64,000 nucleotides of DNA. Origin: Escherichia phage KIT01. Below, piece after piece: positions 25,861 through 40,581 of this stretch; position 1 is the stretch's first letter, and every line of letters starts with the position of its first letter. Position numbers and translations under genes: made by a program. Where the stretch lies: sequence record AP019521.1. One strand, written 5' to 3'. The notes beneath the pieces are model-generated. The model did no database searches. It saw only the letters and a program-made list of their open reading frames with translations, and was not told where the DNA came from.

Positions 25861-26021
25861 AGGTGTCTCTTAGTTGGTGGGGCCGTTCCTTGGCACATAA
25901 TTCATCCATGTATCCGTATGTAAACCCTTTACCGCACTTGGGCTCGACCTTATTACAGGTAGGGAAAGGTCCATCACTCAGAGGACGCGACGTTCATGAG
26001 GAGAGGGCCGGCTTGCCTTTA

Positions 26022-26321
26022 TTAGAAAGAACCAGAACCTTTAATTGTGTTCTGACGACCTTTATTTTCCAATTCGGAGTGGTCGATTTCATATGCTTGT
26101 GCTACGCCAAAGGCCTTTTTAACTTTAGCTAAAGAACCTTTAGATGTAACAATATTAAAAGTATTACCTTTGGTAAAATCAACCAAATCCACTTGTACAC
26201 CCTGCTTGCCGAGGCTTGCTACAATAGCATCAACATATTGTTGGTCTAAAGTACCTTGGACGCCAATTTGAAATGCTTTAGGAGCTTTGGCTTCTGTAAT
26301 AAATTCTTGATAAGTTTTCAT
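26022..26321 (-). CDS. capsid-targeted internal protein (CTS leader)
   Basis: N-terminus MKTYQEFITE matches the T4 internal-protein capsid-targeting leader ending at Glu10. Confidence 0.55.
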   Translation of the reverse strand: MKTYQEFITEAKAPKAFQIGVQGTLDQQYVDAIVASLGKQGVQVDLVDFTKGNTFNIVTSKGSLAKVKKAFGVAQAYEIDHSELENKGRQNTIKGSGSF

Positions 26322-26329
26322 ATTAAGCC

Positions 26330-26689
26330 TTAAAGATGGTCTAGTGCTGGGTTATGAGGTTTTTCTGCTTTAGTAGTGTTTTTATGCCAATCTGATTTAG
26401 AAACACGGATGGCATCAGCGCCATAAGAACTCTTAAGGAGACCTTTTTTATTGTACACGCTTATTGAAGTAAGAGAATCACCATTCCATGTAGCATGAAT
26501 GAAGTTAGATTTAGATTTAAGTTCTTTAGCCAAGCTCTGGTTAGTGGCCATGGAAGCAAAGTCTTTACCTGTAACTTTAAAAACTTCAGATGGGTTCAGC
26601 CCTTCTTTAGCCTTAGCCAATTGTTCAGGAGACATAGCTTCGTTAATGCGCTGAGTAGATTCAGTAATAAATTGTTGGTAAGTTTTCAT
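26330..26689 (-). CDS. capsid-targeted internal protein (CTS leader)
   Basis: N-terminus MKTYQQFITE; AAGGAA RBS; cotranscribed with the next CTS gene. Confidence 0.55.
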   Translation of the reverse strand: MKTYQQFITESTQRINEAMSPEQLAKAKEGLNPSEVFKVTGKDFASMATNQSLAKELKSKSNFIHATWNGDSLTSISVYNKKGLLKSSYGADAIRVSKSDWHKNTTKAEKPHNPALDHL

Positions 26690-26731
26690 ATTATTCCTTA
26701 AGTTGATAGAAGTATTCTATCACGGATTTAA

Positions 26732-27148
26732 TTAAGCGTAAATAGCCTTGCCGTAATGTTTGTACCAGGTAGGACGCTGTGCAATTTTTTCGTCCAAACG
26801 GGCTTGTGAAATGGCGATAGAAGCTTCGTGTGGAGTATAATCACCACGGAATTCCTGAGGAATATCACTAATGTCCTGGACCGTAGTATCCTTGATATTA
26901 AAACCACGTTTTAAACATTCCGCTATAAGCTCGATTTGACGTTTACGTAAAAACTCAAGCTTATCATAAAAGAAAGTAACATGGCCTGTACCAAGGATAA
27001 AAGTAGAGCTAATTTTAAAATCACGAACACGTTTACCATTAGCAACATGCTTACGAACTGCACCGAAAACACGTGGCAATTCACGATATTCAGCCATTAA
27101 GTGTTGGTCAGCCAATTCAGATACTAAGGTAAGGTTGATACGAGTCAT
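26732..27148 (-). CDS. denV: endonuclease V (pyrimidine-dimer DNA glycosylase) DenV
   Basis: [29 protein letters not shown]... matches T4 DenV; ATG 27148 after GGAG. Confidence 0.85.
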
Positions 27149-27177
27149 TTTAGTGTTCTCCATGTTTGTATGAGAAC

Positions 27178-27206
27178 ACTATATCACAGCTATTGTAAAA
27201 GTAAAC
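27178..27206 (-). promoter_or_regulatory. early promoter upstream of denV
   Basis: GTTTAC(27201-27206)-17 nt-TATAGT(27178-27183); GTGTTCTC/GAGAACAC inverted repeat in leader. Confidence 0.5.
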
Positions 27207-27208
27207 TG

Positions 27209-27511
27209 TTATTTAGCTTTAATTGCTTTAGCTGCTTCGGTAGCCGCTTGCTGAAGGTCATCCATAGACATACCGAACTTAGAAGCAAAGTTATCAATTT
27301 TCTTTTCGACAGAATTCAAAGGCTTGGCCTGTTTACCTTCATTAGCGCCCGGGAGAGCGAGAATACGCTCTTTGTCAATATAAAGGCTTACAAGTTTCTT
27401 ACGGTCTTTATCCGACAAATCATGAAATGAATGGGCCTTTTTATTTACAGCGGCTTCTAATTTACCTGCGGTTACGCGGGCTTCAGTGATAAATTCTTGA
27501 TAGGTTTTCAT
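27209..27511 (-). CDS. ipII: internal protein II-like (CTS leader)
   Basis: 100 aa; MKTYQEFITEARVTAGKLEAAVNKKAHSFHDL... resembles T4 IPII; position between denV and e. Confidence 0.6.
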   Translation of the reverse strand: MKTYQEFITEARVTAGKLEAAVNKKAHSFHDLSDKDRKKLVSLYIDKERILALPGANEGKQAKPLNSVEKKIDNFASKFGMSMDDLQQAATEAAKAIKAK

Positions 27512-27563
27512 ATGTTTCCTTAAAGGTAAATATTTTAATTGGTATGTTCAAGTAACTGTAGAT

Positions 27564-27592
27564 ATACTATCACAATTCTAGGAGATGTAAAC
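27564..27592 (-). promoter_or_regulatory. early promoter upstream of ipII-like gene
   Basis: GTTTAC(27587-27592)-17 nt-TAGTAT(27564-27569). Confidence 0.45.
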
Positions 27593-27991
27593 TTATTTGT
27601 AGGTTTTCATCCAATTCTTGAACAAAGCCGCGACGTCTTTCTCTTTAACGTTCAGTTTAACGTCCAACATTTTACCACCCGCTGCTCTCGTTTGGCGAAT
27701 CTTAGCAGTACCGGTTTCACCATTCCACTCAACATAATACTGTCCAGTGTTCATTGCAATACCATCACCATAGTCTTCATTTTTAGAAGTGGTGAATGCC
27801 AGCTTCATAGTCTTAGATACACGAGCCTGCATGCCTGTCTGAAGGGCATTACGAACTCGAATAACCTGAGGAGTGGCCTGGGTCAGGTTCTCATTCAGTT
27901 CTTCAGTGAACTCTTCGGATTCGAACATCGCCAAAAGTTCTTTAGATGCAGGAATTACATTCTCTGCGATAAATTCATTATAAGTTTTCAT
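27593..27991 (-). CDS. capsid-targeted internal protein (CTS leader; IPIII position)
   Basis: 132 aa; N-terminus [10 protein letters not shown]; directly downstream of e. Confidence 0.55.
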
Positions 27992-28472
27992 ATGCTTTCC
28001 AAGTACCTGTTTTAAATGTAGAAATCACGCGCTTAGCACGATTAGGAGTTTGTTTATACCAACGGGATTGAGCCAGGTTAACTGCCGCATCGTTCCAACG
28101 TTTCTGTCGGAGCATACGTAAAGAGTTAGTGAACCCTGCTACACCTGCTTCACCCATTTGGAAGACCATGTTAATTAAAGCACAACGACGAACTTCGTCC
28201 AATACATCGTAAACAGGTTTCAATTTAGGATTACGCAGAATAGCTCTACGAGCATTTTCAACCGATCGGTTAAAGAGTTGTTCAGCTTCAGCCATAGTAA
28301 TACGTCCATTGCAAACTCGACCCATAAGCTTATCAAGTTCAGCCCGAGCAACATCTTTAGAAGGATTCTTAGTAATCAATTGGCCAATACCAATAGTCCA
28401 ATAACCTTCGGTGTCTTTATAAAGATTTAAATCAAGACCTTCGTCTTGACGTAACATATCAAAAATATCCAT
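27978..28472 (-). CDS. e: lysozyme (endolysin) gp e
   Basis: 164 aa; [35 protein letters not shown]... matches T4 lysozyme. Confidence 0.9.
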
Positions 28473-28474
28473 AA

Positions 28475-28502
28475 TACCTCCTGAGTATAGGAGGTATTTA
28501 TA
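28475..28502 (-). promoter_or_regulatory. SD-sequestering hairpin plus late promoter TATAAATA for gene e
   Basis: palindrome TACCTCCT-GAGTAT-AGGAGGTA (28475-28496) contains the e RBS; minus-strand TATAAATA at 28495-28502. Confidence 0.55.
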
Positions 28503-28952
28503 TCAAAAGAGCGAATCTAAAACCTTAAACATCGACGGGCCCATGACATATTCCCATTGCGGACGTTTAATCAAAGCAAAAGCATCGAATTCAGGAATCG
28601 TGCGACCATCAGGGAACGTATGGTAAGCTGTACATTTGCAATCCTTGAACTGCTCGTGTTCCACAGGCACCGTATATAAGAACAGGTGTAGATTCTTATT
28701 GCTTGAATATTTGAACTCACCTAGGTCTTTCAGGAACGCAGGATCGTATGCTGTGAATCCAATCTCTTCTTCGGTTTCACGCATTGCCGCTTGAATAGGC
28801 TCTTCGCCTGGTTCGACATGACCTTTAGGAATGTCCCATTTATGACGCATATTCTCTGGATTACGAGAGCCTGTTACACGACCCATAACTAGTTCTTTAT
28901 CAACGGTCATGAACAAAATACCTGCCGATAATTCCTTAGCTTTCTTACTCAT
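28503..28952 (-). CDS. nudE: Nudix hydrolase NudE (e.1)
   Basis: 149 aa; Nudix box GHVEPGEEPIQAAMRETEEEIG. Confidence 0.75.
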   Translation of the reverse strand: MSKKAKELSAGILFMTVDKELVMGRVTGSRNPENMRHKWDIPKGHVEPGEEPIQAAMRETEEEIGFTAYDPAFLKDLGEFKYSSNKNLHLFLYTVPVEHEQFKDCKCTAYHTFPDGRTIPEFDAFALIKRPQWEYVMGPSMFKVLDSLF

Positions 28953-28972
28953 CGTCTCGTTCCCATGATTGT

Positions 28973-29182
28973 TTAAAAAATATCTCGTATAATAATTTCA
29001 ACACATGTTTCTGTTGACGGACTTTCACTATCAGATATTTGGACCATATAATCAGAAATAGGTCGGAACATATCCAAGTCGCTTTCTAAATCTTCTTTGA
29101 TTTTCTCTTCTGATGTTCCGGTATCATAGGAATACAGGTAAGAATCACATGACTCAGATTTAATATAAATTGCAATACTCAT
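28973..29182 (-). CDS. hypothetical acidic protein
   Basis: 69-aa ORF. Confidence 0.4.
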   Translation of the reverse strand: MSIAIYIKSESCDSYLYSYDTGTSEEKIKEDLESDLDMFRPISDYMVQISDSESPSTETCVEIIIRDIF

Positions 29183-29766
29183 TTACGGCATTCCTTAATA
29201 AAAGAGTTTAATGTATTTTTCTTGGTGATATCATCATATACCTTTTTAACTTTAGAAATACGAAAAGGTACTTCAATAACGGAGGTCCATAAAAATGATG
29301 CGATAAGACCTAAGATAGCAGCAGACATCGCTGAAGCGAATACACAAATAGGCAGGTCATTATCTGTTGTCAGGAAAAACCCTAGGAGTAGGAAAAATAA
29401 TATACCCATCCAAACATAGAATCTAGAACTCACCAATTTGTCGTATTCATCACTCCAGGCACGGAAGCCGTATTTTTTGCTATAACAAATCAATGGGTCT
29501 GGAGTCTGTTCTTTATGTGGTTCTGGTTGCCAGCCGTTTACGATATAGCCCATTTTATATTCCTCAATTAAAAGCCGTTTCATTTCGGCAGTACAACCTG
29601 ACCAATCTATTGTACTGGCTGAAATTCCTTCATCACCGTCATCGATATTTCGCCAGGACTTTTTAATAATCATAGTCTCACCACTTGGGATAATAATTCC
29701 GGCATTTTCCGACCGACGGATGAAGTTTGCATCAATACCCATACACCCAGGTTCATAAAGGGCCAT
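29179..29766 (-). CDS. membrane protein
   Basis: 195 aa; two C-terminal hydrophobic helices. Confidence 0.5.
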   Translation of the reverse strand: MALYEPGCMGIDANFIRRSENAGIIIPSGETMIIKKSWRNIDDGDEGISASTIDWSGCTAEMKRLLIEEYKMGYIVNGWQPEPHKEQTPDPLICYSKKYGFRAWSDEYDKLVSSRFYVWMGILFFLLLGFFLTTDNDLPICVFASAMSAAILGLIASFLWTSVIEVPFRISKVKKVYDDITKKNTLNSFIKECRK

Positions 29767-30455
29767 TACCAGCCCTCCATAGGGAATTCCAGATATACTT
29801 GAGCATTAACACGGATTTCATTAGTAATCTTTTTAACACGGTCTGTATTACGAGACACACGACCAAACCAGCGCCAACCGTTACTTACTGCACGAGAACC
29901 TGTATGCCATGTCTGCCAATCAAACTGGAGCAACGTGCGGTCAGGAGCATCCCACTTGGTTAATTCATTGGACTCAATTTTTTCCAGAACTTCTTTATGC
30001 CACTGGCGATAGATAAGTTCGCCTTCAGGAATCTGACTGAACTGTGCAGTTCCGGTTGCAAAATGAGTAGGACACACATCAGCGTTAACAAGACCAAGAA
30101 TATGTTCAGAATGGTATCGAGGATTATCATAATCAGGTTGCCCTGCGGTAATAAAGTGTTGACCAACCGGAATATCCGGACGTGGTACATCATCATGGTG
30201 GAAGCCTGGAATTGCAGGGTACCAGCCAGGCATTAACATGTGTACACGGGAATCAAATACAATATCAGGGCCACATTGCCAATCTTCAGGCAGGTTTTCA
30301 ATAAAGCTACGAGTAATAGGACCACCGTGTTTATGAGCAAAATAAGCATCGCAATTAAAGAACATAGGCTCATTTTTAATCATACCATTACTGATATCTT
30401 GAGCAAAATTACCTACTATAGAAGCTTTAGAATTAAAAGTTTTCGGACCGTTCAT
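29766..30455 (-). CDS. 2OG-Fe(II) oxygenase superfamily-like protein (PhyH-like)
   Basis: HxD-like FHHDD and distal WHTGSRAVSNGWRWFGRVS resembling the H-x-G-x-x-N-x-S...R 2-oxoglutarate-binding motif. Confidence 0.4.
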   Translation of the reverse strand: MNGPKTFNSKASIVGNFAQDISNGMIKNEPMFFNCDAYFAHKHGGPITRSFIENLPEDWQCGPDIVFDSRVHMLMPGWYPAIPGFHHDDVPRPDIPVGQHFITAGQPDYDNPRYHSEHILGLVNADVCPTHFATGTAQFSQIPEGELIYRQWHKEVLEKIESNELTKWDAPDRTLLQFDWQTWHTGSRAVSNGWRWFGRVSRNTDRVKKITNEIRVNAQVYLEFPMEGW

Positions 30456-30469
30456 AATATTTTCCTCAC

Positions 30470-30682
30470 TTACTTTTTGTTGAAAAAGTACATTTTACCT
30501 TTAGGAGATAAGGATACACGAAGTGCGTTACCAATACCAACTGAACATTTAACCAGGTCAGCAGATTTCAATTCACCAAATGCTTGACGAAGGTCACCAT
30601 CACGAGTGTTAACCATCAGGCATTTAGCACCAGCTGCACGAACTTCGTTTAACATGTTGATTGCTTGGTTAGAAAGTTTCAT
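30470..30682 (-). CDS. hypothetical protein
   Basis: ATG 30682 (MKLSNQ...) after GGAGAATAAA; the upstream in-frame ATG is part of the SD. Confidence 0.45.
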   Translation of the reverse strand: MKLSNQAINMLNEVRAAGAKCLMVNTRDGDLRQAFGELKSADLVKCSVGIGNALRVSLSPKGKMYFFNKK

Positions 30683-30713
30683 TTTATTCTCCATTTCACT
30701 CTGTTGTTTTGAT

Positions 30714-30748
30714 AGGTCTATAGTATCACACCTATAGACCTTGTACAC
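30714..30748 (-). promoter_or_regulatory. early promoter with 10-bp perfect inverted repeat (PeSL-like)
   Basis: GTGTAC(30743-30748)-17 nt-TACTAT(30720-30725); arms AGGTCTATAG(30714-30723)/CTATAGACCT(30732-30741). Confidence 0.5.
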
Positions 30749-30760
30749 TGTTTTGTGCAA

Positions 30761-31720
30761 TTATTTTTCGAAAGGACGAATTAAATGATGGTTATCTTGG
30801 AAACGCTTGATGTAGTCGTTTTCACCTAAAGTCTTGTACATATTAACCACAGCTTGGTAGTTTTCCCAGGCGTACTCACGGAACCAACCTGAAGTGATTG
30901 AGGTACACACTTTCTCAAGGGCCATATAGAAACTTAATGATGGTGAAATATTGAAGTCATTAGGAACCTGTGAACGTTCTAGGGCAAGGACACAAGTTTC
31001 TTCATACACGCCAGCCAATTTAATAGCTTCAGGCAAAGCCTCGAACTTCTCACGAGAGGTCATGACTTCAGAACCTTCCTTCATATAAAAGGTATATGCA
31101 GGGCGCCCTGCCAATGCTACTGCTTCATGAATAGAGTCATGGTCCAGCGTATAAATGGTATCATTAAAGAATGATGATTTGTTTACGTCCAATTTAGGGT
31201 GGGAATAGCTCAACGTTTCTTTTTGACGCTGCAGCATAATTTCCTGGAGTTCTTCGTTCAGGGTGATACCTTTATTACGAAGGTATTTGATGTGGGACAT
31301 AGTTTTCAGGAAGAACGGAGTATTCTTCAGGAAACGATGAGAGGTTTTGATAGCCAGACAGATATCAGGCGTAGCCCAATAGAAACCTGTAAGACGGTCC
31401 TTTTTAATATGATTTTCGGCATATTTCAAAAGACGATAACTTGAGGTGAAATCTTCGTCTTGAAGCTCACCGGTGATTTCGCGTACATTAGTCAGAGCAC
31501 GAACGATATAAGCTTCAAAATAGGTTTCTTTACCATTATGCATACATTTGAAAGCCTGGACATCAGGATTGTCAACGTGTACATGGGCACCGAACATCCG
31601 AGCTTTAAAGTGATTCCATGAGCCTTGGTCGGCAATGAAATCCCAATCAGAATTTTCGATTTGCTTACTTTCAATCAGGCCAGCGTGGTGCAGTGCACGA
31701 GAACCAATAACTAACATCAT
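30761..31720 (-). CDS. hypothetical protein (319 aa)
   Basis: ATG 31720 after GAGGAAAA; N-terminal VIGSRALHHAGL...NSDWDFIA could be a divergent nucleotidyltransferase-like motif (uncertain). Confidence 0.5.
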   Translation of the reverse strand: MMLVIGSRALHHAGLIESKQIENSDWDFIADQGSWNHFKARMFGAHVHVDNPDVQAFKCMHNGKETYFEAYIVRALTNVREITGELQDEDFTSSYRLLKYAENHIKKDRLTGFYWATPDICLAIKTSHRFLKNTPFFLKTMSHIKYLRNKGITLNEELQEIMLQRQKETLSYSHPKLDVNKSSFFNDTIYTLDHDSIHEAVALAGRPAYTFYMKEGSEVMTSREKFEALPEAIKLAGVYEETCVLALERSQVPNDFNISPSLSFYMALEKVCTSITSGWFREYAWENYQAVVNMYKTLGENDYIKRFQDNHHLIRPFEK

Positions 31721-31739
31721 AATATTTTCCTCATTAAAC

Positions 31740-31979
31740 TTAAATTTCAGCAACGTAATCGTTATGCAATTCCCACATATCATCAGAATTATTCTTAATG
31801 ATAGGAATTATCTCATTAGAGATTTCTTCTGCATAAGGGTCATTGATACAGTGAGCATCTTCAAAACGAACACCGTAATCAGACTTCTTATAGGCAAAGC
31901 CATAAATCTTTTTAAACTTGGCACGGGTAATGCGTACCGGTTCATTAGACTTATCAGACAACGGAGAGTAATACCACAT
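31740..31979 (-). CDS. hypothetical protein
   Basis: 79-aa ORF. Confidence 0.4.
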   Translation of the reverse strand: MWYYSPLSDKSNEPVRITRAKFKKIYGFAYKKSDYGVRFEDAHCINDPYAEEISNEIIPIIKNNSDDMWELHNDYVAEI

Positions 31980-32022
31980 ATGTTCTCCTCATGTTTGTGT
32001 ATGGTAATAGTAACACGATTTT

Positions 32023-32352
32023 CTAGAGTTGTACATCACTTCTGCAATATTCTAAAAATAATTTATCATTGTCTACAGTATCCCAACGACGCCAAGATGG
32101 ATTCCAGACCAGAGCGTTGTCACCACAATCATTGAGCTTAAAATGGTCGTAGTACATAGCTATATGTCTAGTTTCGTCACCAGAGAACCCTAGTATAGGC
32201 TCACCGTGGGTGTGATACATATGATGGTGCATTGAGAGGTCGCATTTGTAAAACATCTCACGTTTACCACGAACGAACAAGAAAGCTTGCCCATTCATAT
32301 AGAATTCTTTATCTGTTTTCAAAAGATATTTGAATACTGAATCTTTGTGCAT
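32023..32352 (-). CDS. His-rich hypothetical protein (possible metal-binding)
   Basis: ATG 32352 after AGGAGG; contains MHHHMYHTHGE cluster. Confidence 0.45.
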   Translation of the reverse strand: MHKDSVFKYLLKTDKEFYMNGQAFLFVRGKREMFYKCDLSMHHHMYHTHGEPILGFSGDETRHIAMYYDHFKLNDCGDNALVWNPSWRRWDTVDNDKLFLEYCRSDVQL

Positions 32353-32382
32353 AAGTCCTCCTACCACATCCGTGTGGTTAAA

Positions 32383-32610
32383 TTATTTTCCTAACGAAAC
32401 ACGAGTAGGTTTTTTACCAAAATAGTCTTCATAAGAACCATCTAAACGTCCCGCTTTAGACCGACAATATGAATCGTACTTTTTATAATAAGTCATCTCA
32501 GTATTATAACGTGGGTGTCTATCAGCCATAATAATACTTAGTGGCCAACCTTTGGCATAATCGCGAAGACCATTTATTTTACGAATGTATCGTTTTTTCA
32601 ATTTTAGCAT
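32383..32610 (-). CDS. hypothetical basic protein
   Basis: 75-aa ORF. Confidence 0.4.
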   Translation of the reverse strand: MLKLKKRYIRKINGLRDYAKGWPLSIIMADRHPRYNTEMTYYKKYDSYCRSKAGRLDGSYEDYFGKKPTRVSLGK

Positions 32611-32828
32611 GAGCTTGGGTACCAGATTTTACCATCGGCCTGAGCAACGAAGGTGCGACCAGCTTCTTCACCATAACAAGAGCTATTCAGCCAATCTTCG
32701 AGACGAACTTCACCGTCATAATCGTCTAGCTCAACACCAAAATCCTGAGCAGAAGCCATATCTTTTACTTTCTTATACAGTGCGGCCAGTTCAAGTGCCG
32801 CTTTTTCTAATTCATTAATATCAGACAT
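32604..32828 (-). CDS. W-x-SS-C-tail paralog family member D
   Basis: 74 aa; helical N-terminus, C-terminus KIWYPSSC. Confidence 0.5.
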   Translation of the reverse strand: MSDINELEKAALELAALYKKVKDMASAQDFGVELDDYDGEVRLEDWLNSSCYGEEAGRTFVAQADGKIWYPSSC

Positions 32829-32839
32829 TTTTTATCACC

Positions 32840-33049
32840 TTAGCAAGACATAGAGGAGCTAAACCAGAAACCTTCACCTTCAGGAATACCGTAGTCATCA
32901 CGGGCCCATTCATAATCATCATATTCCGGACTAGAAGCTGGAATATATTCTTCGCCACCAGCGTGGAAGTGCTGACCTGTTTCGTCAGCCACGGCCTGGC
33001 CTTTACGTACTAATTCGCGGATTTGTTTTTCAATTTCATCAATAGTCAT
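32840..33049 (-). CDS. W-x-SSS-x-x-C-tail paralog family member C
   Basis: 69 aa; C-terminus FWFSSSMSC. Confidence 0.5.
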   Translation of the reverse strand: MTIDEIEKQIRELVRKGQAVADETGQHFHAGGEEYIPASSPEYDDYEWARDDYGIPEGEGFWFSSSMSC

Positions 33050-33058
33050 TTTATTTCC

Positions 33059-33340
33059 TTAGCATTCAGAAGAAGAGGACACCCAACCACCATTTTCTAG
33101 GCTGGTAGTGTAATCATGCTGGTTTACAATAGCGTACTGAGCTTCACCGTATTCTTCCCAGTGGGCAAGGTCGGCTTTCAGGGCGCCAGGAGAATAATAG
33201 TCACCGCCCATACCGCGAGCAGGGTATATATTAAAATGAGTCTCATATTTGTTTGCAATTTCCTCGGCACGACGAATAGCTTTATGGATATCATTTACTG
33301 CATCAGCCAGTTCTTTATTTTTACGGTAATCATTCATCAT
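33059..33340 (-). CDS. W-x-SSS-x-x-C-tail paralog family member B
   Basis: 93 aa; C-terminus GWVSSSSEC. Confidence 0.5.
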   Translation of the reverse strand: MMNDYRKNKELADAVNDIHKAIRRAEEIANKYETHFNIYPARGMGGDYYSPGALKADLAHWEEYGEAQYAIVNQHDYTTSLENGGWVSSSSEC

Positions 33341-33349
33341 AGCGTTTCC

Positions 33350-33640
33350 TTAGCACAATGCCGAAGAGGAGACCCAAGCACCAACGGTAACGACACCGTT
33401 TTCAACTTCACCACCGTTGTTTTCAATTTCATCTTTAAACCACTGGGAGCATTCGTAACCGACAGGATAATATGTACGACCCGAACCATAATCACCAGTG
33501 CCGAATTCAATACCATACTTATCGGCAATAGCTTCACATTCATGTTCGATGGTATTCACTTTATTCAGAAGAGCATAGATAGCCTTTTCTGCAGATTTCT
33601 CGTCGTTGTGTTCCGGGATTTCGATTTCAATTTTATTCAT
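33350..33640 (-). CDS. W-x-SSS-x-x-C-tail paralog family member A
   Basis: 96 aa; C-terminus AWVSSSALC; ATG overlaps upstream stop. Confidence 0.5.
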   Translation of the reverse strand: MNKIEIEIPEHNDEKSAEKAIYALLNKVNTIEHECEAIADKYGIEFGTGDYGSGRTYYPVGYECSQWFKDEIENNGGEVENGVVTVGAWVSSSALC

Positions 33641-33987
33641 GATTTACATTCCTTAATAAAGGTTTCAAGGTCATTACGTTTAGTTTGTTTTACATACTCA
33701 TTATAATTAGCCATCTCTAAAGCATATCTCTTTTTGCTTGGCTTGTTTATCCTATTGGTGTTGATAATATCCAAGACAAGAGGGATAAAGTATCCTATTA
33801 AAGCTGGAACCCAAATCCAGGCAGGGTTCAATTCAAATAGATTTTGTGTCGTATCATTAACGACTCCGCCAGCAATTAGTCCAACAAGCCCGGCAATCAT
33901 ACCAGTGACAAGTCCAGCGAATAAAGAAATAGCGATATCATAATCTGCTAATGCGTAACCAGGGTCGGTTTTACTAGGCTTATACAT
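33637..33987 (-). CDS. membrane protein
   Basis: ATG 33987 after AAGAGG; hydrophobic GLVTGMIAGLVGLIAGG and a second helix. Confidence 0.45.
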   Translation of the reverse strand: MYKPSKTDPGYALADYDIAISLFAGLVTGMIAGLVGLIAGGVVNDTTQNLFELNPAWIWVPALIGYFIPLVLDIINTNRINKPSKKRYALEMANYNEYVKQTKRNDLETFIKECKS

Positions 33988-34516
33988 TACGAACCTCTTT
34001 AGCGTATTCGCGGCATTCAGCAATAAAACGATTAAGCTTCCGTTGCTGTTTTCGAATCTCTGATGTATACTCATTGGCCAAAATAATAAGCTCATCTTTA
34101 TCGTAATTTTTAATATCAGAGTAAGATGGGCGGCGGTCGACCATACCAAAATGGTCACCATTTTCTAACATCAAATAGCATACTAAATGGTAATCATCGT
34201 CGGCATTAGTAAGCTGTTTATAATCGCTTGGTTCATTTAAAGAGTATACTGAATAGCGTAGCCCAGCGAACTCCACTCGTTGAATATCCAGATTTACGTC
34301 AATAATTTCTAAAGCTTCTGCAAAAGAAAGGTCCTCAGCCAAAGCAAAGATAAAAGGTAATTTGGTAGTATGCCCACGGCTACTTGTTCGACTTAAGAAA
34401 TCATTGGAATAACCTAAGTCTTGGCGAATTCTATAAAGAACTGAATTAGTTTCATGTGAAAGACCACTATGTTTAAACCAATCAATATTTGATATCAGGT
34501 CGTCATATAAACTCAT
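33980..34516 (-). CDS. hypothetical protein
   Basis: 178-aa ORF. Confidence 0.5.
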   Translation of the reverse strand: MSLYDDLISNIDWFKHSGLSHETNSVLYRIRQDLGYSNDFLSRTSSRGHTTKLPFIFALAEDLSFAEALEIIDVNLDIQRVEFAGLRYSVYSLNEPSDYKQLTNADDDYHLVCYLMLENGDHFGMVDRRPSYSDIKNYDKDELIILANEYTSEIRKQQRKLNRFIAECREYAKEVRNV

Positions 34517-34564
34517 AATATTCTCCTCTCCTCCAAATAGGGAGACCGAAGTCTCCCAGTAACA

Positions 34565-35158
34565 TTACTTAAGTGAATTAATGTAGTCGTCGATATCGGC
34601 AGAAGTCGTATCCATTCCAACTTGCGGGCCTTTAAACGTTTCTACACGCAGTAGGGTGTCTTCAATATCAATCTTAGTCAGTGCAGCGATTTCAACAACA
34701 TCATCGGCAGTAGCAATACCAAGGGCAGCCATATTACGAGTTTCACGGATATACTCGAGCTTAACGGCCAGTTCCTGACGAGAGTCATCAAGTTCCTTAA
34801 CCTTCAGTTTAATTTCATTACGCATTTCGATATAATCATCAGCTTTCTTACGAAGCTGAGTAGCTGTACGACGATAAAGGAGGCCAAGTTTAGCATGTAC
34901 CTGGACATCAGCGCCTTCGGCAATCAGTTTACGAATTTCACGTTCTTTAGAAGCAGCGAGCTGGTCCTTTTCATTAGCCAATGCACGAATACGTTTTTCT
35001 TCATTCACGGACTTAACATGAGCAGTCTGGAGTTCAGTAATTTTATCAATCAGGGTAGAAGCAGCTTTGGTGTATTGGTCTTCGATTGACAGGTTCTGAG
35101 TCATCGCGGTGCCCAGTTTAGAACGAATGAATTCAACGATTTTCTTTAAAGTGTTCAT
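34565..35158 (-). CDS. coiled-coil protein (PspA/IM30-like architecture, tentative)
   Basis: 197 aa almost entirely heptad-like charged helix; GAAGGAAA RBS; first gene after a PeSL-like promoter. Confidence 0.45.
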
Positions 35159-35195
35159 AGTATTTCCTTCAGTTGGTTAACGTTTTGTAATCCAT

Positions 35196-35231
35196 GAGGA
35201 CATTATACCCTGTCCTCTGAGGGTTGTAAAC
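35196..35231 (-). promoter_or_regulatory. early promoter (PeSL-like)
   Basis: GTTTAC(35226-35231)-17 nt-GTATAA(35203-35208); GAGGACA/TGTCCTC arms. Confidence 0.5.
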
Positions 35232-35234
35232 ATT

Positions 35235-35636
35235 TTATTTCATTTTTGCTAGGCAGATTTCATTGGCTTCCCATTGAGCTTGCTTAATAATAGCTTTGGA
35301 TACAGGAACCCTTTGGCCATAAATTTTTGACGTTGAGAGAACAATATATTTGTTTGCCTCATTATGCCATCCTACTGATTTTTCGCCATGAGTACCTTTA
35401 ACTACAGCAGACACCTCAACAGAGCAGCCATCAGAACTAATCTTGGTGTCTACAATCCATTCATTTCTCTCGGCAGCTTCAATTTCCGATCTCATTTTTT
35501 CTTCATACATGGCTGCCCAATCAGTTTTCGCCAAGTTGAAAGTAAGAGCTTTCTCTAATTCTTTGGCGGCTTTTTGTTGTTCAGGTGTTAATGAATTATA
35601 CAACTCTTGCATTTCTTTATCTTCGATATTCATCAT
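35235..35636 (-). CDS. hypothetical protein
   Basis: 133 aa; GAGGAGA RBS. Confidence 0.5.
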   Translation of the reverse strand: MMNIEDKEMQELYNSLTPEQQKAAKELEKALTFNLAKTDWAAMYEEKMRSEIEAAERNEWIVDTKISSDGCSVEVSAVVKGTHGEKSVGWHNEANKYIVLSTSKIYGQRVPVSKAIIKQAQWEANEICLAKMK

Positions 35637-35653
35637 GCTCTCCTCAAATTATA

Positions 35654-35689
35654 GGGCTCATAATATCTTAATCATGAGCCCATGTAAAC
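35654..35689 (-). promoter_or_regulatory. early promoter (PeSL-like)
   Basis: GTTTAC(35684-35689), -10 near 35660-35666; GGGCTCAT/ATGAGCCC arms. Confidence 0.45.
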
Positions 35690-35692
35690 ATT

Positions 35693-35956
35693 TTATTTCA
35701 TATTATTGAAATAATCTTCTGCATCAAAATCGTTATCATGATAAACTTTGGTAGACGATTTGGCGTAGCCTTCAGCTGAGAACATATTAATCACAACTTT
35801 AATTGTATACCACTGTCCATCTTCATTACCCATTACTGCATAGGTTTCATACACTGGGTGTTCAGGACCGATAACTTTAATATCGTTAACAGTAGCACCA
35901 AATTCTTCAGGAACGCATTTCATAAAGAAATTAAACAATTCACCATAATTATCCAT
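35693..35956 (-). CDS. hypothetical protein
   Basis: ATG 35956 (MDNYGELF...) after AAGGAGAG; track ORF begins at an upstream GTG. Confidence 0.5.
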   Translation of the reverse strand: MDNYGELFNFFMKCVPEEFGATVNDIKVIGPEHPVYETYAVMGNEDGQWYTIKVVINMFSAEGYAKSSTKVYHDNDFDAEDYFNNMK

Positions 35957-35962
35957 TTTACT

Positions 35963-36020
35963 CTCCTTCACACTGTTGTTTTGATAGGTCTATAGTATCA
36001 TGTTTAAAGGAGGTGTAAAC
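35963..36020 (-). promoter_or_regulatory. early promoter (PeSL-like)
   Basis: GTTTAC(36015-36020)-17 nt-TACTAT(35992-35997); CTCCTT/AAGGAG arms. Confidence 0.5.
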
Positions 36021-36079
36021 AACTTTGTGAAATTATTTTTAGTTTAAACCCCCAAAAAGGAGACCGAAGTCTCCTTTCA

Positions 36080-36688
36080 TTATTTACGAGTCTTTTCGAA
36101 CTGTGCTGCGTCACCTGCAAGGCGGCCCGCTTGGCGAAGTTTGTTATTGATTTCTTCGCGCATAGGCTGGGTATACTTAAGGCCTTCAACCGTCAGATAG
36201 AGACGATACAGGTCTGGGGTATCCAGGTTGTTAATGTGTTGACCATTACGAAGAGCGTTGAATTCACGAACAAGGTGTTTAGTTTCAGATTCGATTTCAG
36301 AAACTAAAGAAGCCAGTTGGTTATATTTTTTAACTATAGTGCTGGTGTCAAACTTGATTTTAGATTTAGGAGCTTCTTTTACAGGTTCTGGTTTAGGCGT
36401 CGGTTTCGGTGTTGCAACTTTGGGCTGAGCCGCAGGTTTAGCAACAGGAGCTTTAGCAGGTTTAGCAGCGCCACCAGCTACTATATCTTTAAAAGCTTTG
36501 GAAGCTTTGTAATATTCTTTCTGGCTGCTAGTATCAAAACCATACATATCATAGACGTTTTTAAAGAATTCGGTGGTGGTTTTAGTCCCAGAAATTTTAT
36601 CATAAGCTGCTTGCCACATATCTTTAGTCATGCGGATGCCGGCTTCACTCAGAACGCTTTCGTTCAAAAATTCATTGTAAGTTTTCAT
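36080..36688 (-). CDS. capsid-targeted internal protein with Ala/Pro-rich linker
   Basis: 202 aa; N-terminus MKTYNEFLNE; central AKPAKAPVAKPAAQPKVATPKPTPKPEP; late promoter upstream. Confidence 0.55.
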   Translation of the reverse strand: MKTYNEFLNESVLSEAGIRMTKDMWQAAYDKISGTKTTTEFFKNVYDMYGFDTSSQKEYYKASKAFKDIVAGGAAKPAKAPVAKPAAQPKVATPKPTPKPEPVKEAPKSKIKFDTSTIVKKYNQLASLVSEIESETKHLVREFNALRNGQHINNLDTPDLYRLYLTVEGLKYTQPMREEINNKLRQAGRLAGDAAQFEKTRK

Positions 36689-36716
36689 TGGTATTTCCTA
36701 AGTTAATTAACTTATC

Positions 36717-36752
36717 TATTTATACAAAAAGCCCAACCTTTCGGAAGGGCCG
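36717..36752 (-). promoter_or_regulatory. terminator hairpin fused to late promoter TATAAATA (module copy 1)
   Basis: minus strand: hairpin (36726-36752) then T-run overlapping TATAAATA (36717-36724), 29 nt upstream of ATG 36688. Confidence 0.55.
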
Positions 36753-36756
36753 TGAA

Positions 36757-37311
36757 TCAATTCTTATAGAATCGGAACGGGTTTACGTGGAAGGCTAACA
36801 TAGCCTTAGGGATTTTACGAGACAAAAGACTCTTAAGTTTCCAACCGCAGTATACTCGTAGGTAAAAGGTAATCCCACCAACCTTAAGATATGGAACCGA
36901 AGCAAAGACTCCCCAGGCGTCGTCATTCCACATCCATAGCCACCCATGATGAGCTTTATCAGGAGAACCTGATTCCACATCGGGATTACCACGATAATGG
37001 AATTCTGAGCTACAATCACGGCCGAGTTTATGGTAAGCAAAGTTATAAGCTTTATTTCGCCACAACCAGGCTACTCGTTGAAGGTATATGCCTAAAGGTA
37101 GTTTTCTTATTTTAGCCCAACGTTTAATGTGACCTTTATCACCGTCAATTGGATTATCGTATGTCATCATCCAATCAAAGCCGTACGGCAATTTACCAGT
37201 CTTTTTATTGTGGAAAGGAACTACAAAAGGTGCAAGGATAACAGCCAGAACCATAGAGATAAAATCTAGTGGGACCAACAGAACCCAACTCAAATATTTT
37301 AAAAGTTTCAT
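36757..37311 (-). CDS. late-expressed membrane-anchored protein of unknown function
   Basis: 184 aa; N-terminal TM MKLLKYLSWVLLVPLDFISMVLAVILAPFVVPF; AGGAAATAAT RBS; flanked by the two module copies. Confidence 0.5.
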   Translation of the reverse strand: MKLLKYLSWVLLVPLDFISMVLAVILAPFVVPFHNKKTGKLPYGFDWMMTYDNPIDGDKGHIKRWAKIRKLPLGIYLQRVAWLWRNKAYNFAYHKLGRDCSSEFHYRGNPDVESGSPDKAHHGWLWMWNDDAWGVFASVPYLKVGGITFYLRVYCGWKLKSLLSRKIPKAMLAFHVNPFRFYKN

Positions 37312-37337
37312 ATTATTTCCTAAGTTAGTTTACTACA

Positions 37338-37376
37338 TATTTATACAAAAAAGGCCCAACCTTTCGGAAGGGCCTT
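37338..37376 (-). promoter_or_regulatory. terminator hairpin fused to late promoter TATAAATA (module copy 2)
   Basis: near-identical to copy 1: hairpin 37351-37376, TATAAATA at 37338-37345. Confidence 0.55.
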
Positions 37377-37383
37377 TAACCTA

Positions 37384-37756
37384 GGGTAACCTTGTCGGGG
37401 TTCCACCTGCTAGGCAAGTGTTTGTACGAAACGCCAGGATTCGAACCCGGTTATTAAGTAGTTGACGCTACTCAATATTTTTAAAAGGCCATATCTCGAC
37501 CATATCCGAACGTTCCGTCAAAAACGCTACTCGGCTTACGGCAAAGATATTTCCTCGAATCGATAATTAGGTGCGCCGTTTCTGCTGTGATGTAAGGGGA
37601 CGTTAACAGATCGTAAAGATTTGTTAATGCCAGTCCTTACTCAGGGAACATCAGTCCGACGACTTACCGGTAGCGACCCGGTTTCTTGTTTGTTGCGCCG
37701 GTGAATGCTGGTAATCAGTCTTCATACGACGGCTTGACTATATAATAGTCTTCATT
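37384..37756 (-). ncRNA. structured non-coding RNA region downstream of the tRNAs (possible small stable RNAs, includes a tRNA-like T-arm)
   Basis: no ORF; GGTTCGAATCC T-loop-like element near 37432-37447 with acceptor-like pairing but no standard anticodon arm; bounded by terminator at 37351-37376. Confidence 0.3.
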
Positions 37757-37831
37757 TGGTATCCCGCCCTGGGATCGAACCAGGACCGCAAACTTAGAAG
37801 GATCGTATGCTATCCATTACACCAGCGGGAC
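37757..37831 (-). tRNA. tRNA-Arg (anticodon UCU)
   Basis: hand-folded cloverleaf: acceptor GTCCCGC/GCGGGAT, T-arm CCTGG-TTCGATC-CCAGG, anticodon loop CTTCTAA, encoded ACCA 3' end. Confidence 0.7.
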
Positions 37832-37836
37832 GTAGT

Positions 37837-37913
37837 TGGTGACCCAGACCAGATTTGAACTGGTAACCTTTCCCTTATGAGGGGACTGCTGCTAACCATT
37901 GAGCTACAGGGCC
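37837..37913 (-). tRNA. tRNA with CAU anticodon (Met, or Ile if lysidine-modified)
   Basis: hand-folded: T-arm ACCAG-TTCAAAT-CTGGT, anticodon loop CTCATAA, encoded CCA; 5 nt from tRNA-Arg. Confidence 0.65.
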
Positions 37914-37918
37914 TTAAA

Positions 37919-38185
37919 TCAAACTACAAATCCAGCAGGAGCATTATCATCTTTAGCCATGTGCTGAATTGTATGATAAGTCATTTCTTCAGGAGCAACC
38001 AGATAAGCCGCAGCGTTAACTAGTGGAATTATTTTTGGTTTAGCGAATGTGCTATCGGCAATTGCCATAAAGGGCTCGCCATCAGTCTCAACTTCGCCAA
38101 ATTGACATTCATATGAAATAGAACAACGTTTGGTAGTTGTTGTCTTGGTTTCTGGGTCGTAAAAAGCTAATTTTAATACTAACAT
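37919..38185 (-). CDS. hypothetical protein
   Basis: ATG 38185 after GAGGTG; immediately upstream of the tRNAs. Confidence 0.45.
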   Translation of the reverse strand: MLVLKLAFYDPETKTTTTKRCSISYECQFGEVETDGEPFMAIADSTFAKPKIIPLVNAAAYLVAPEEMTYHTIQHMAKDDNAPAGFVV

Positions 38186-38297
38186 AAACACCTCAAATAA
38201 AATTAAGTAAAGTAAGTTTGATTAATAGACTTTGTCTATTATGAAAGGTTCTTTGAGGGAAGAACCTTTGGTAATAGAGGGTATTAATGATAGAGTA

Positions 38298-38322
38298 ATA
38301 ATAACACATTACTCTTAAAGCA
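38298..38322 (-). promoter_or_regulatory. candidate MotA-dependent middle promoter
   Basis: minus strand TGCTTTA (38316-38322) 12 nt upstream of TATTAT (38298-38303) in a 170-nt ORF-free region with two hairpins. Confidence 0.3.
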
Positions 38323-38359
38323 TATTACTATTTTTAGGAATAGTCTGGTCAAATTTGAT

Positions 38360-38650
38360 TCATTGTGGCCACATATTAATGTAATCAAGTTTAATAGAAG
38401 CAATCTTCAAAGGATTTTTAAAGATGTCGTATTCGATCAATCCGTTTTCAGTTGCGGTGTAGAAAGTAAAGTTAACAGAATTATAACGGCGACCATTAAC
38501 TTTTAGTTTAACGTCGCTTGAACTACGACCAATATTAACCTGTTGGACATCAAGCACAGCACCTTTGCCAAAGTTGCGAATCAGTAGCTCTGCTGCAACC
38601 TGGTCTGAATTATAGCCATTCTCTGGATTAGTAACCTTAACGTATAGCAT
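38360..38650 (-). CDS. hypothetical protein
   Basis: 96-aa ORF. Confidence 0.45.
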   Translation of the reverse strand: MLYVKVTNPENGYNSDQVAAELLIRNFGKGAVLDVQQVNIGRSSSDVKLKVNGRRYNSVNFTFYTATENGLIEYDIFKNPLKIASIKLDYINMWPQ

Positions 38651-39058
38651 TTAACCCTCGTCTACAATAGTATGGGTATTAGCATTAACAATCTGCCACC
38701 AGTCACAGTCAAAACGATTAGAACCGTAACGAGGCTTTTTCTCATTTTCGTTAATAATATCACGTAGTTCGTCTTCAGAAAATGCTTTAGCGATTAAATC
38801 GGTATAGCCGCCACGTGGATAATAGTTATCACCTGCGAACAGAAGGAAATTTACTTTACCAGAAGGAACATATGCTTCCTTAGAGTACTTGTTTCCTGCA
38901 TGGTCTACCACTTCAATATAACGATAAGGGATATCGGTACTTTCAACCCATTGCCAAGCTGCAGCAGGGGATTCAAAAGCATCTACACCTAAACGGTTAT
39001 CTTCATCTTTAGACGGATTATTTTCATAATCCGCATATACATAATATTCAACGTTCAT
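38651..39058 (-). CDS. hypothetical protein
   Basis: 135-aa ORF. Confidence 0.5.
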   Translation of the reverse strand: MNVEYYVYADYENNPSKDEDNRLGVDAFESPAAAWQWVESTDIPYRYIEVVDHAGNKYSKEAYVPSGKVNFLLFAGDNYYPRGGYTDLIAKAFSEDELRDIINENEKKPRYGSNRFDCDWWQIVNANTHTIVDEG

Positions 39059-39243
39059 TATTCACCTTTAGAGATTTTATCCATAACGAAAGAAATTGAA
39101 CCAATTAAGAATGCCACTACTAAAGAGATTATATTCTCTGAAGTTGAAAGCATATCGAGCATGAATCCTGCAAACATACTAAAGCCAAAAGCAGTAACAG
39201 CGGCCAGTGCAGTAACATTTCTAATTAATTCACAACGTTTCAT
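39058..39243 (-). CDS. small membrane protein
   Basis: ATG 39243 (MKRCELIR...) after GGAGAATAAA; hydrophobic helices. Confidence 0.4.
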   Translation of the reverse strand: MKRCELIRNVTALAAVTAFGFSMFAGFMLDMLSTSENIISLVVAFLIGSISFVMDKISKGE

Positions 39244-39279
39244 TTTATTCTCCAATCACTCATTTGTTTTGATAGGGCT

Positions 39280-39309
39280 ATAGTACCATCACTAAAGCCC
39301 GTTGTAAAC
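39280..39309 (-). promoter_or_regulatory. early promoter (PeSL-like)
   Basis: GTTTAC(39304-39309), -10 near 39280-39286; GGGCT/AGCCC arms. Confidence 0.45.
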
Positions 39310-39311
39310 AA

Positions 39312-39584
39312 TTATTTTAAATAAATTGCATATTTTTTATAACCAGCCGTCTCGTGACGCAGTCCTTTTTCATTAGCAAAACGTTCAATATTGTTAATTT
39401 GATTCTGGTCGAGTTCTGAAGTATCAAAAACAAAAAAGTTTCGCTTATTGCCTAAAGTTACGTGATTAGTCAAATCGATGTTATAGAGATGATTTATATC
39501 ATCAATCATAGTCTTAACAGATTTGTTAATTTTTACTTCTTCATTAAGAAGAGATTCAGCGATAAATTCTTGGTATGATTTCAT
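39312..39584 (-). CDS. capsid-targeted internal protein (IPI position)
   Basis: 90 aa; N-terminus MKSYQEFIAE; adjacent to 57B as T4 ipI. Confidence 0.55.
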   Translation of the reverse strand: MKSYQEFIAESLLNEEVKINKSVKTMIDDINHLYNIDLTNHVTLGNKRNFFVFDTSELDQNQINNIERFANEKGLRHETAGYKKYAIYLK

Positions 39585-39585
39585 T

Positions 39586-39810
39586 TTATTCAGCGCCAGC
39601 GGCTTTCAAAAGTTTTTTAAGGTTGGCTATGCCGCCAGCAGAAAACGTGACCTTGCCACCTTTTTCATTGATAGAGCCAGTCAATTTAGCAAGCTTATCA
39701 CTAGGGACTTTTTTAAAATCAGCCAGTGTGCCATCAAAGGTTTTTGTAACAATTGGCAGTTCATCTTCATGTCTTTTAGCTTCGGTGATAAATTCTTGAT
39801 AAGTTTTCAT
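39586..39810 (-). CDS. capsid-targeted internal protein (CTS leader)
   Basis: ATG 39810 gives MKTYQEFITEAKR...; GGAGAATAAA RBS. Confidence 0.55.
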   Translation of the reverse strand: MKTYQEFITEAKRHEDELPIVTKTFDGTLADFKKVPSDKLAKLTGSINEKGGKVTFSAGGIANLKKLLKAAGAE

Positions 39811-39841
39811 TTTATTCTCCATTTCACTCTGTTGTTTTGAT

Positions 39842-39876
39842 AGGTCTATAGTATCATGCCTATAGACCTTGTAAAC
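39842..39876 (-). promoter_or_regulatory. early promoter with 10-bp perfect inverted repeat (PeSL-like)
   Basis: GTTTAC(39871-39876)-17 nt-TACTAT(39848-39853); arms AGGTCTATAG(39842-39851)/CTATAGACCT(39860-39869). Confidence 0.55.
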
Positions 39877-39888
39877 ACCTTTTTTAAA

Positions 39889-40581
<693 letters not shown>

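Follow-up and report, generated by a model that had tools for sequence, protein, structure and literature searches.

Polymorphic internal protein (ip) genes of the T-even phages were reportedly described by Repoila, Tetart, Bouet and Krisch in 1994. In the P1 Dar system and among the ejection proteins of SPN3US and phiKZ, proteins enter the head during assembly, are trimmed by the prohead protease and reach the cell along with the DNA, forestalling host defences. They are large, unrelated in sequence and in targeting signal, and follow an ordered incorporation hierarchy where the T-even type uses a short portable tag. The T-even internal proteins have been reviewed as a diverse, defence-countering set that shares only a capsid-targeting sequence (CTS; Rao and Black 2010, PMC3012670, citing Repoila 1994). 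Each of the T4 proteins Ip1, Ip2 and Ip3 blocks a GmrSD type IV enzyme of its own (Silas 2025, PMC12373910): Ip2 inhibits the GmrSD of ECOR21 and Ip3 that of ECOR17, without cross-protection, and ten ip genes set against five further GmrSD systems yielded no new pairs (PMC12373910). IPI* inhibits the GmrSD of CT596, and IPIII is needed on ECOR17 and works in the cytoplasm without its CTS (PMC9391042). Here we describe seven genes that begin with such a leader in a 64,000-nucleotide stretch of Escherichia phage KIT01 (AP019521.1; G+C 39%), which we refer to as the window; the genes are labelled W1 to W7 by ascending coordinate (Table 1).

We consider it about 85% probable that the seven are T4-type ip genes of a Dhakavirus, whose products are packaged, cut by the gp21 protease, injected and active against restriction. 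The motif, the orthology, the synteny, the selection on the peptide and the positions of the recombination junctions are observed directly, and from these, together with what is known of T4, we infer packaging, cleavage, injection and targets for the seven proteins. The anti-defence role proposed in a first-pass annotation of this DNA is supported by the T4 precedents above, in which three internal proteins block three different type IV enzymes. The interpretation is not new, having been known since 1994 and extended experimentally in 2025, and it leaves current understanding unchanged. What is new is modest, namely three unannotated families, a W5 locus with a late-promoter motif, mapped indel junctions at the leader and the apparent portability of the Ip9 module.

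A shared leader selected at the peptide level

The open reading frames (ORFs) picked out by the first-pass annotation with the pattern MK[TS]Y[QN][EQ]F[IL]xE are all complete and in frame, and all lie on the minus strand. Six-frame scans of the 64 kb with the strict pattern and with progressively looser ones returned exactly seven matches. A chance origin of the set is ruled out, as 50 shuffled sequences gave 0 matches. No further leader ORF was found in the window, even with patterns loose enough to catch leaders of the MLKFKEF- or MKTFKEF- type. The likeness is restricted to the leader itself: its 30 nt have 82% nucleotide identity between the seven copies, compared with a background of 29–34% in the 30 nt upstream and in the next 60 nt, and when the bodies, from residue 13 onward, were compared all against all by BLAST, each protein formed its own cluster, in agreement with the earlier claim that the bodies are unrelated. 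W1 and W7 were considered as distant paralogues and rejected, their body comparison giving E=0.74 with a likeness confined to the leader.

Aligned with T4, as had been proposed, the leaders match the experimentally defined CTS. In the mutational map of the IPIII CTS, residues 4 and 7 serve targeting and residues 8 and 10 processing (PMC9026906); the corresponding Y4, F7, [IL]8 and E10 are either unchanged or replaced conservatively in every one of the seven leaders, and M1, K2, Y4, F7 and E10 are identical throughout. The gp21 protease cuts after L/I-x-E, and this motif stands at residues 8–10 in 7/7 (from W1 to W7: ITE, ITE, ITE, IAE, LNE, IAE and ITE). The assignment to a T4 IPI/IPII/IPIII type of leader held for IPII and IPIII but not for IPI, whose own leader is longer, at 19 residues, and different (MKTFKEFTSTTTPVSTITE), so that the seven resemble it only in MKT[FY]xEF.

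Synonymous codon differences occur at T3, Y4, I8 and E10 (pairwise, 37 synonymous versus 42 non-synonymous), and the non-synonymous changes are T/S, Q/N, E/Q, I/L and T/A/N. Because the leaders vary synonymously and the residues they keep match functionally mapped positions, their similarity is not mere nucleotide carry-over, which the first-pass annotation had named as a possible objection; the seven leaders are selected at the peptide level. The same residues can be followed through more distant relatives. Orthologues of W4 keep the leader invariant, with residues 11–31 variable or deleted, and distant relatives of W5 keep only [FY]4, [ED]6, [FI]7, [LV]8 and E10 (for example MLKFKEF..ISE and MISFNEFV). 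The residue after the predicted cut (P1′, residue 11), a position left free in the search pattern, is A, S, A, N, S, S and A from W1 to W7; among 132 leader proteins from IMG/VR, 93 have Ala or Ser there.

Second [LI]xE sites follow the leader in W2 (INE, residues 15–17), W5 (LSE, 13–15, followed by A) and W6 (LNE, 13–15). The two sites of W5, LNE before S (8–10) and LSE before A, lie close together, and E15-A16 is nearly invariant. W4 has an invariant L32-N-E34, followed by N35, after a variable acidic stretch that is disordered in the AlphaFold2 (AF2) model. These second sites may mark longer propeptides, comparable to the 19 residues of T4 IPI. The mature forms are predicted to be basic in six of the seven cases, with isoelectric points (pI) of 8.8–9.7, for instance 9.3 for W1 (~89 aa), 9.5 for W2, 9.7 for W3 and 9.6 for W7; the value for W6 is 6.8.

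Named internal proteins and three unannotated families

PHROGs assigns 4/7 proteins to families that carry the name internal head or virion protein, and 3/7 to families of unknown function. Judging from orthology, W1 is Ip7, W3 is IpII, W6 is Ip9 and W7 is Ip8. W1 has 96% identity to the gene annotated ip7 in VR7 and ~49% to T2 ip7 (phrog_2667, 'internal head protein', E=1.7e-42). W3 shares 93% identity with T4 IPII over 100 aa (phrog_7857, E=6.9e-54), and an IpII with at least 90% identity is present in 185 of 197 phage records. W6 matches Ip9 of RB15 (Z35082.1) at 78% and the gene annotated Ip9 in IME08 at 97% (phrog_7673, E=7.7e-56), and W7 matches Ip8 of the same RB15 record at 86% and the gene annotated ip8 in VR5 at ~90% (phrog_8765, E=8.1e-27). 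The ipI locus begins, just downstream of 57B, with W7, to which W6 is adjacent, and the 1448-bp RB15 record holds both ip9 and ip8; as in the polymorphic ip genes of the T-even phages, unrelated bodies stand behind one conserved leader.

The Ip9 body was seen in three contexts, as the CTS-tagged Ip9 of T4-like phages, as a free, early-looking ORF in a siphophage and as the C-terminal part of large Ackermannviridae proteins. The Kagunavirus siphophage JSSK01 has it as a stand-alone Ip9-like ORF of 72 aa without CTS (53% identity; phrog_7673, E=6.8e-27), the first gene of a rightward operon. In the Ackermannviridae YX22 and Kuttervirus aagejoakim, phrog_3867 proteins of 755–972 aa end in it, over their last ~60 residues (E=3e-11 and 1.6e-8), and the genes of these proteins adjoin 'putative structural protein' genes. 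A protein homologue search with Ip9 returned close relatives only. The three contexts suggest that the Ip9 body is a portable effector module that may use different delivery routes.

W2, W4 and W5, in contrast to the named T-even ip genes, represent three leader-bearing families that have no Ip label in the public records matched, and form part of the new content, although one of them may have been described in 1994 under another name. They have stayed unannotated despite being present in 49–138 sequenced phages each. W2 (phrog_3966, 'unknown function', E=3.9e-26) occurs in 89 phage records, in all of them as 'hypothetical protein', including RB69ORF123c (34% identity); W4 (phrog_15461, 'unknown function', E=1e-91) occurs in 49, again always as 'hypothetical protein'; and W5 (phrog_2280, 'unknown function', E=9.7e-60) occurs in 138, none of which gives an annotated function, and has 100% identity to a protein of KIT01 itself.

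W4 occupies the slot beside e that is held by IpIII in T4. Its start lies inside the last codons of e, with a 14-nt overlap at 27978–27991 (...AYENL-stop versus MKTYN...) that is the same in AnYang, and the residues invariant in its family are M1, K2, T3, Y4, E6, F7, I8 and E10 together with L32, E34 and N35. The AF2 model of W4, of low confidence (mean predicted local distance difference test, pLDDT, 60), has residues 1–32 disordered, then a helix, five strands and a helix, and a fold search with it gave no informative match. We considered and dropped an IPI*-like fold (helix-sheet-helix), as the PDB fold search did not return IPI*. Residues 5–97 of W4 also resemble residues 189–275 of M.HhaI, its small (target-recognition) domain (E=0.011, 19 bits), which is probably a chance match and found no support in the fold search. 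Apart from this weak match, PDB sequence searches with W3 and W4 returned nothing, and Pfam and NCBIfam gave nothing above threshold, the sub-threshold noise consisting of NlpA, DUF7412, COMP and the TonB proline spacer.

W5 carries the Ala/Pro-rich linker reported in the first-pass annotation. In its AF2 model (mean pLDDT 74.7), a helical N-domain (17–72) is joined by a disordered Ala/Pro/Lys linker (74–108) to a confident helical C-domain (112–200). The model had no PDB match below E=1 (best E=1.5), and BFVD returned only its own family; structure prediction, which had been suggested as a route to function, therefore gave no functional match for either W4 or W5. An exhaustive HMMER profile search of 1.84 billion representatives with W5 found 13 clusters. 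All 8 of the 8 family clusters retrieved start with a degenerate leader, and no CTS-less homologue was found among these eight of the 13. Two of the eight share the N-domain and a TonB-like Pro/Lys/Ala spacer and have unrelated C-terminal domains, a pattern of domain swapping.

A bolder reading, doubtful in our view though not far-fetched, would make W2, W4 and W5 unrecognised families of injected effectors with targets beyond the known GmrSD variants, such as enzymes reading arabinosylated cytosine or other first-response defences. W5 would then be a third, late-only ip locus that combines a constant N-domain and a TonB-like spacer with interchangeable C-domains, and anti-defence modules such as the Ip9 body would be traded between phage families, each recipient coupling them to its own means of delivery.

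Synteny, cassette exchange and probable function

A megablast search of positions 25800–40400 against GenBank phages matched 989 T4-type records. The best matches were the Dhakavirus phages LHE83, JS10, JS98 and AnYang, at 91–95% identity and with a query coverage of at most 80% in every record. By these matches, the window is a JS98/AnYang-like Dhakavirus segment with the T4 gene order, which runs vs.8, W1, W2, denV, W3, W4, e, nudE, the hyperplastic region, W5, two tRNA genes, trna.2-4, W6, W7, 57B, 57A and gene 1. T4 has its ip genes at two places, ipII and ipIII in the denV–e interval and ipI in the interval from trna.4 to 57B. Six of the seven genes are inside or directly beside these classical loci (W1 and W2 being just past denV), and W5 constitutes a third locus, between the e.6-like region and the tRNA genes. 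The set thus shares with the T4 internal proteins an N-terminal CTS with [I/L]-x-E, small and mostly basic products, the same loci, the upstream promoter/stem-loop architecture and an IpII orthologue. It differs from T4 in having seven ip genes instead of three, in lacking orthologues of IPI and IPIII anywhere in the window, with W4 in the IPIII slot, and in the placement of W5 at a third locus with a late promoter of its own.

The first-pass annotation had called this an expanded repertoire, which is overstated. In the same region there are eight leader genes in AnYang, five in LHE83, four in JS10 and three in T4, and the seven are not exceptional because AnYang has all of them plus IpIII. 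Nor is seven necessarily the whole-genome total, since VR5 and similar relatives carry a further leader ORF of 53 aa at a locus outside the window. A leader ORF of 53–54 aa (MKTYKEFVNEDMVAGDAGGNP...KKRKEKSKNE), Gly/Ser-rich with a Lys-rich tail, was seen in three T4-like IMG/VR contigs, at ~17 kb in VR5-type coordinates. When IMG/VR was scanned for the leader with a degenerate DNA pattern, at least 120 loci were found; contigs of at least 120 kb among the matches listed carry 1–6 leader ORFs apiece, and clustering the bodies of the leader proteins from the IMG/VR matches listed, the window and the reference phages gave about 63 clusters. Searching for the leader allows ip genes to be annotated cheaply and with high specificity.

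The gain, loss and relocation of Ip cassettes through a repeat that comprises the Shine-Dalgarno sequence and the CTS are directly visible when close relatives are compared. Where ipIII is missing here relative to AnYang, two collinear alignments have 52 nt in common at the W3 leader (27480–27531); the sequence upstream of W3 is that found upstream of AnYang ipIII as far as the Shine-Dalgarno sequence, and ipII from there on, which places the crossover just 5′ of the CTS. W2 is missing in JS10 and LHE83, with the crossover within the first ~10 nt of the CTS (26292–26333 / 26660–26701), and JS10 ip7 has the upstream region of W2 through ATGAAAAC, after which the sequence is that of ip7. W4 has moved as well, lying beside e here and in AnYang and beside denV in JS10. 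Both mapped junctions fall inside the ~40–50-nt Shine-Dalgarno-plus-leader repeat. Promoter-early stem-loop (PeSL) elements have been implicated in modular shuffling by Comeau et al. (PMC4122927). The present locus resembles the described PeSL cassettes (Arbiol 2010; Comeau 2014) in having TTTACW-N16/17-TAYWAT with a stem-loop before W7, and in degenerate form before W3 and W2 (for W2, the promoter-like part), and in the link to indels between close relatives; it differs in that both junctions lie in the Shine-Dalgarno/CTS repeat and not in the PeSL.

After the model of T4, the CTS of ~10 residues would bind the gp22 scaffolding core, so that the protein is built into the prohead. gp21 would cut after the Glu of [I/L]-x-E, which is residue 10 in all seven, and probably also at the second site of W2, W5 and W6 (residues 13–17) and at residue 34 of W4. 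The mature, mostly basic protein would be kept in the DNA-filled head in many copies and ejected with the DNA, and would act in the cell before phage gene expression, its likeliest role being the stoichiometric inhibition of modification-dependent enzymes of the type IV GmrSD family, with each Ip specific for one restriction enzyme variant. The Shine-Dalgarno-plus-CTS repeat and the flanking PeSL promoter/stem-loops would double as recombination joints. Because W3 is orthologous to Ip2, it most likely inhibits enzymes of the BrxU/GmrSD-ECOR21 type; for W1, W2 and W4–W7, the searches made gave no sequence or fold clue to a GmrSD-type target. What the seven would have in common with the GmrSD inhibitors Ip1–Ip3 (Silas et al. 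2025; Bair, Rifat and Black 2007) is that these are made beforehand and co-injected with modified DNA, one inhibitor per enzyme variant, whereas, of the seven, only W3 is orthologous to an inhibitor with a known target. Of all phage counter-defences, only internal proteins are present in the cell as soon as the DNA arrives, and a phage with seven of them (an eighth being found in AnYang) offers a ready set with which to search for the host enzymes they act on.

The alternative that fares best is that the proteins are packaged but serve mainly as structural or DNA-condensing basic counter-ions, aiding prohead core assembly and DNA packing. Such a role would suit the basic mature forms, the ~1000 internal-protein molecules that are embedded in the DNA of each T4 head (PMC3012670), the accumulation of polyheads by IPIII and IP0 mutants and the co-purification of Ips with gp22 (PMC9026906), as well as the unusual conservation of IpII, which is unlike that expected of an arms-race gene. 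It fits poorly with the non-essential nature of the T4 ip genes (PMC9026906), with a presence or absence that varies between very close relatives, and with the specific GmrSD targets of three T4 Ips, among which host-expressed IPIII works without its CTS. Moreover, the bodies have neither sequence nor predicted fold in common, a point against one shared structural role. We therefore regard a mainly structural function as improbable. Less probable still, to the point that we give it very little credence, is that the leader is mainly a cassette for DNA-level recombination and translation initiation and that some of the genes, especially W2, W4 and W5, are neither capsid-targeted nor cleaved: the indel junctions in or beside the leader, the PeSL-like elements (known mediators of shuffling) that adjoin it, the lack of an Ip annotation for these three genes in the records matched and the CTS-less Ip9 body of the siphophage would all be accommodated, but not the synonymous variation with amino-acid conservation at functionally mapped residues, the invariance of the leader in W4 orthologues where the next ~20 residues vary or are deleted, its retention in W5 relatives beyond nucleotide homology or the enrichment of P1′ for Ala and Ser.

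Several points count against our preferred reading of the seven as packaged and injected anti-restriction proteins. The mature form of W6 (Ip9) is neutral. Both gp21 and gp22 would be encoded outside the window, which ends before genes 20–23, their presence being deduced from relatives such as AnYang, where the head maturation protease is encoded ~29 kb rightward of ip8. In the literature searched, no Dhakavirus virion proteome was found, nor any N-terminal sequences for these proteins. Dhakavirus DNA may carry arabinosylated 5-hydroxycytosine instead of glucosylated hydroxymethylcytosine (PMC13326640), and because the modification may differ, so may the relevant restriction enzymes. Finally, a canonical late promoter is found only before W5 and e, W7, W3 and W2 being preceded by early-type sites; the same early-type upstream architecture is found at the proven ipI, ipII and ipIII of T4.

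Coordinates and expression signals

The genes, the neighbours that bound them and the candidate expression signals are listed in Table 1. On the gene strand, the late-promoter consensus occurs only before e, before W5 and at one further site (37345–37338). Across the window the motif is no more frequent than chance would give (8 observed versus 8.2 expected), and its function is for this reason deduced from its position. From the copy before e, late transcription could extend over e, W4 and W3 and further on. Flanked by two terminator-like hairpins, W5 looks like an autonomous late unit that would be shielded from upstream transcription, in the order hairpin, promoter, Shine-Dalgarno sequence, gene, hairpin. 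The hairpin past the W5 stop also appeared in the consensus scan, where it is listed on the plus strand (it is a palindrome).

Table 1 Positions of the leader-bearing genes, their bounding genes and candidate expression signals in the window
Feature	Position	Strand	Description
W1	26022..26321	-	Ip7 family, 99 aa, starts MKTYQEFITE
W2	26330..26689	-	unannotated CTS gene, 119 aa, starts MKTYQQFITE
W3	27209..27511	-	IpII (Ip2) orthologue, 100 aa, starts MKTYQEFITE
W4	27593..27991	-	unannotated CTS gene, 132 aa, starts MKTYN
W5	36080..36688	-	unannotated CTS gene, 202 aa, starts MKTYNEFLNE
W6	39312..39584	-	Ip9 orthologue, 90 aa, starts MKSYQEFIAE
W7	39586..39810	-	Ip8 orthologue, 74 aa, starts MKTYQEFITE
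denV (endonuclease V)	26732..27163	-	collinear with annotated denV in JS10, AnYang and T4; separates W1-W2 from W3-W4
e (lysozyme)	27978..28472	-	translation matches T4-type lysozyme; collinear with annotated e
57B	39889..40344	-	collinear with annotated 57B in JS10, T4 and AnYang; bounds ipI locus
Late-promoter consensus TATAAATA	28495..28502	-	23 nt upstream of e; also present before e in T4
Late-promoter consensus TATAAATA	36717..36724	-	28 nt upstream of W5 start
Hairpin with U5 run, terminator-like	36730..36751	-	directly upstream of W5 late promoter; -12.8 kcal/mol, z=-2.2
10-bp hairpin with UUCG loop and U-run, terminator-like	36055..36078	-	1 nt past W5 stop; -13.9 kcal/mol, z=-3.1
PeSL-like element	39842..39876	-	upstream of W7; -35 GTTTACA, then perfect 10-bp stem containing TG-n-TACTAT
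Early-type promoter-like site	27564..27591	-	upstream of W3; TTTACA-16-TAGTAT with TG; stem degenerate
Early-type promoter-like site	26714..26742	-	upstream of W2; TTTACG-17-TAGAAT with TG

The PeSL-like element upstream of W7 (TTTACA-16-TACTAT with TG; stem -15.4 kcal/mol, z=-4.3) agrees with the PST/T4 consensus TTTACW-N17-TAYWAT (PMC4122927), and T4 ipI has the same architecture. The stem upstream of W3 folded no better than shuffled sequences (z=0), and the region resembles that upstream of T4 ipIII. More sites of the form TTTAC[AT]-16/17-TG-TA[CT][TA][AG]T were seen on the gene strand at 35992–36019 (before the ORF at 35971), 39280–39308 (trna.4) and 27178–27205 (denV). Lying away from the CTS genes, such promoter-like sites are consistent with PeSL-type elements scattered across the hyperplastic region.

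The tRNA genes at 37757–37913 on the minus strand are only Arg(tct) and Met(cat), as compared with Arg, Asn and Met in JS10 and eight in T4. The segB-like homing endonuclease gene of the AnYang and LHE83 tRNA region was not seen among the window ORFs there. W7 has an in-frame ATG four codons upstream of its start (39822), and the start at 39810 is favoured because of its GGAG Shine-Dalgarno sequence. An initiation region ATGGAGAATAAAATGAAA, which reads MENKMK..., is repeated before W7 (39811–39822), trna.4 (39241–39255) and the ORF at 30470–30760 (~30700); it contains an upstream in-frame ATG whose codons provide the GGAG Shine-Dalgarno sequence for the second ATG.

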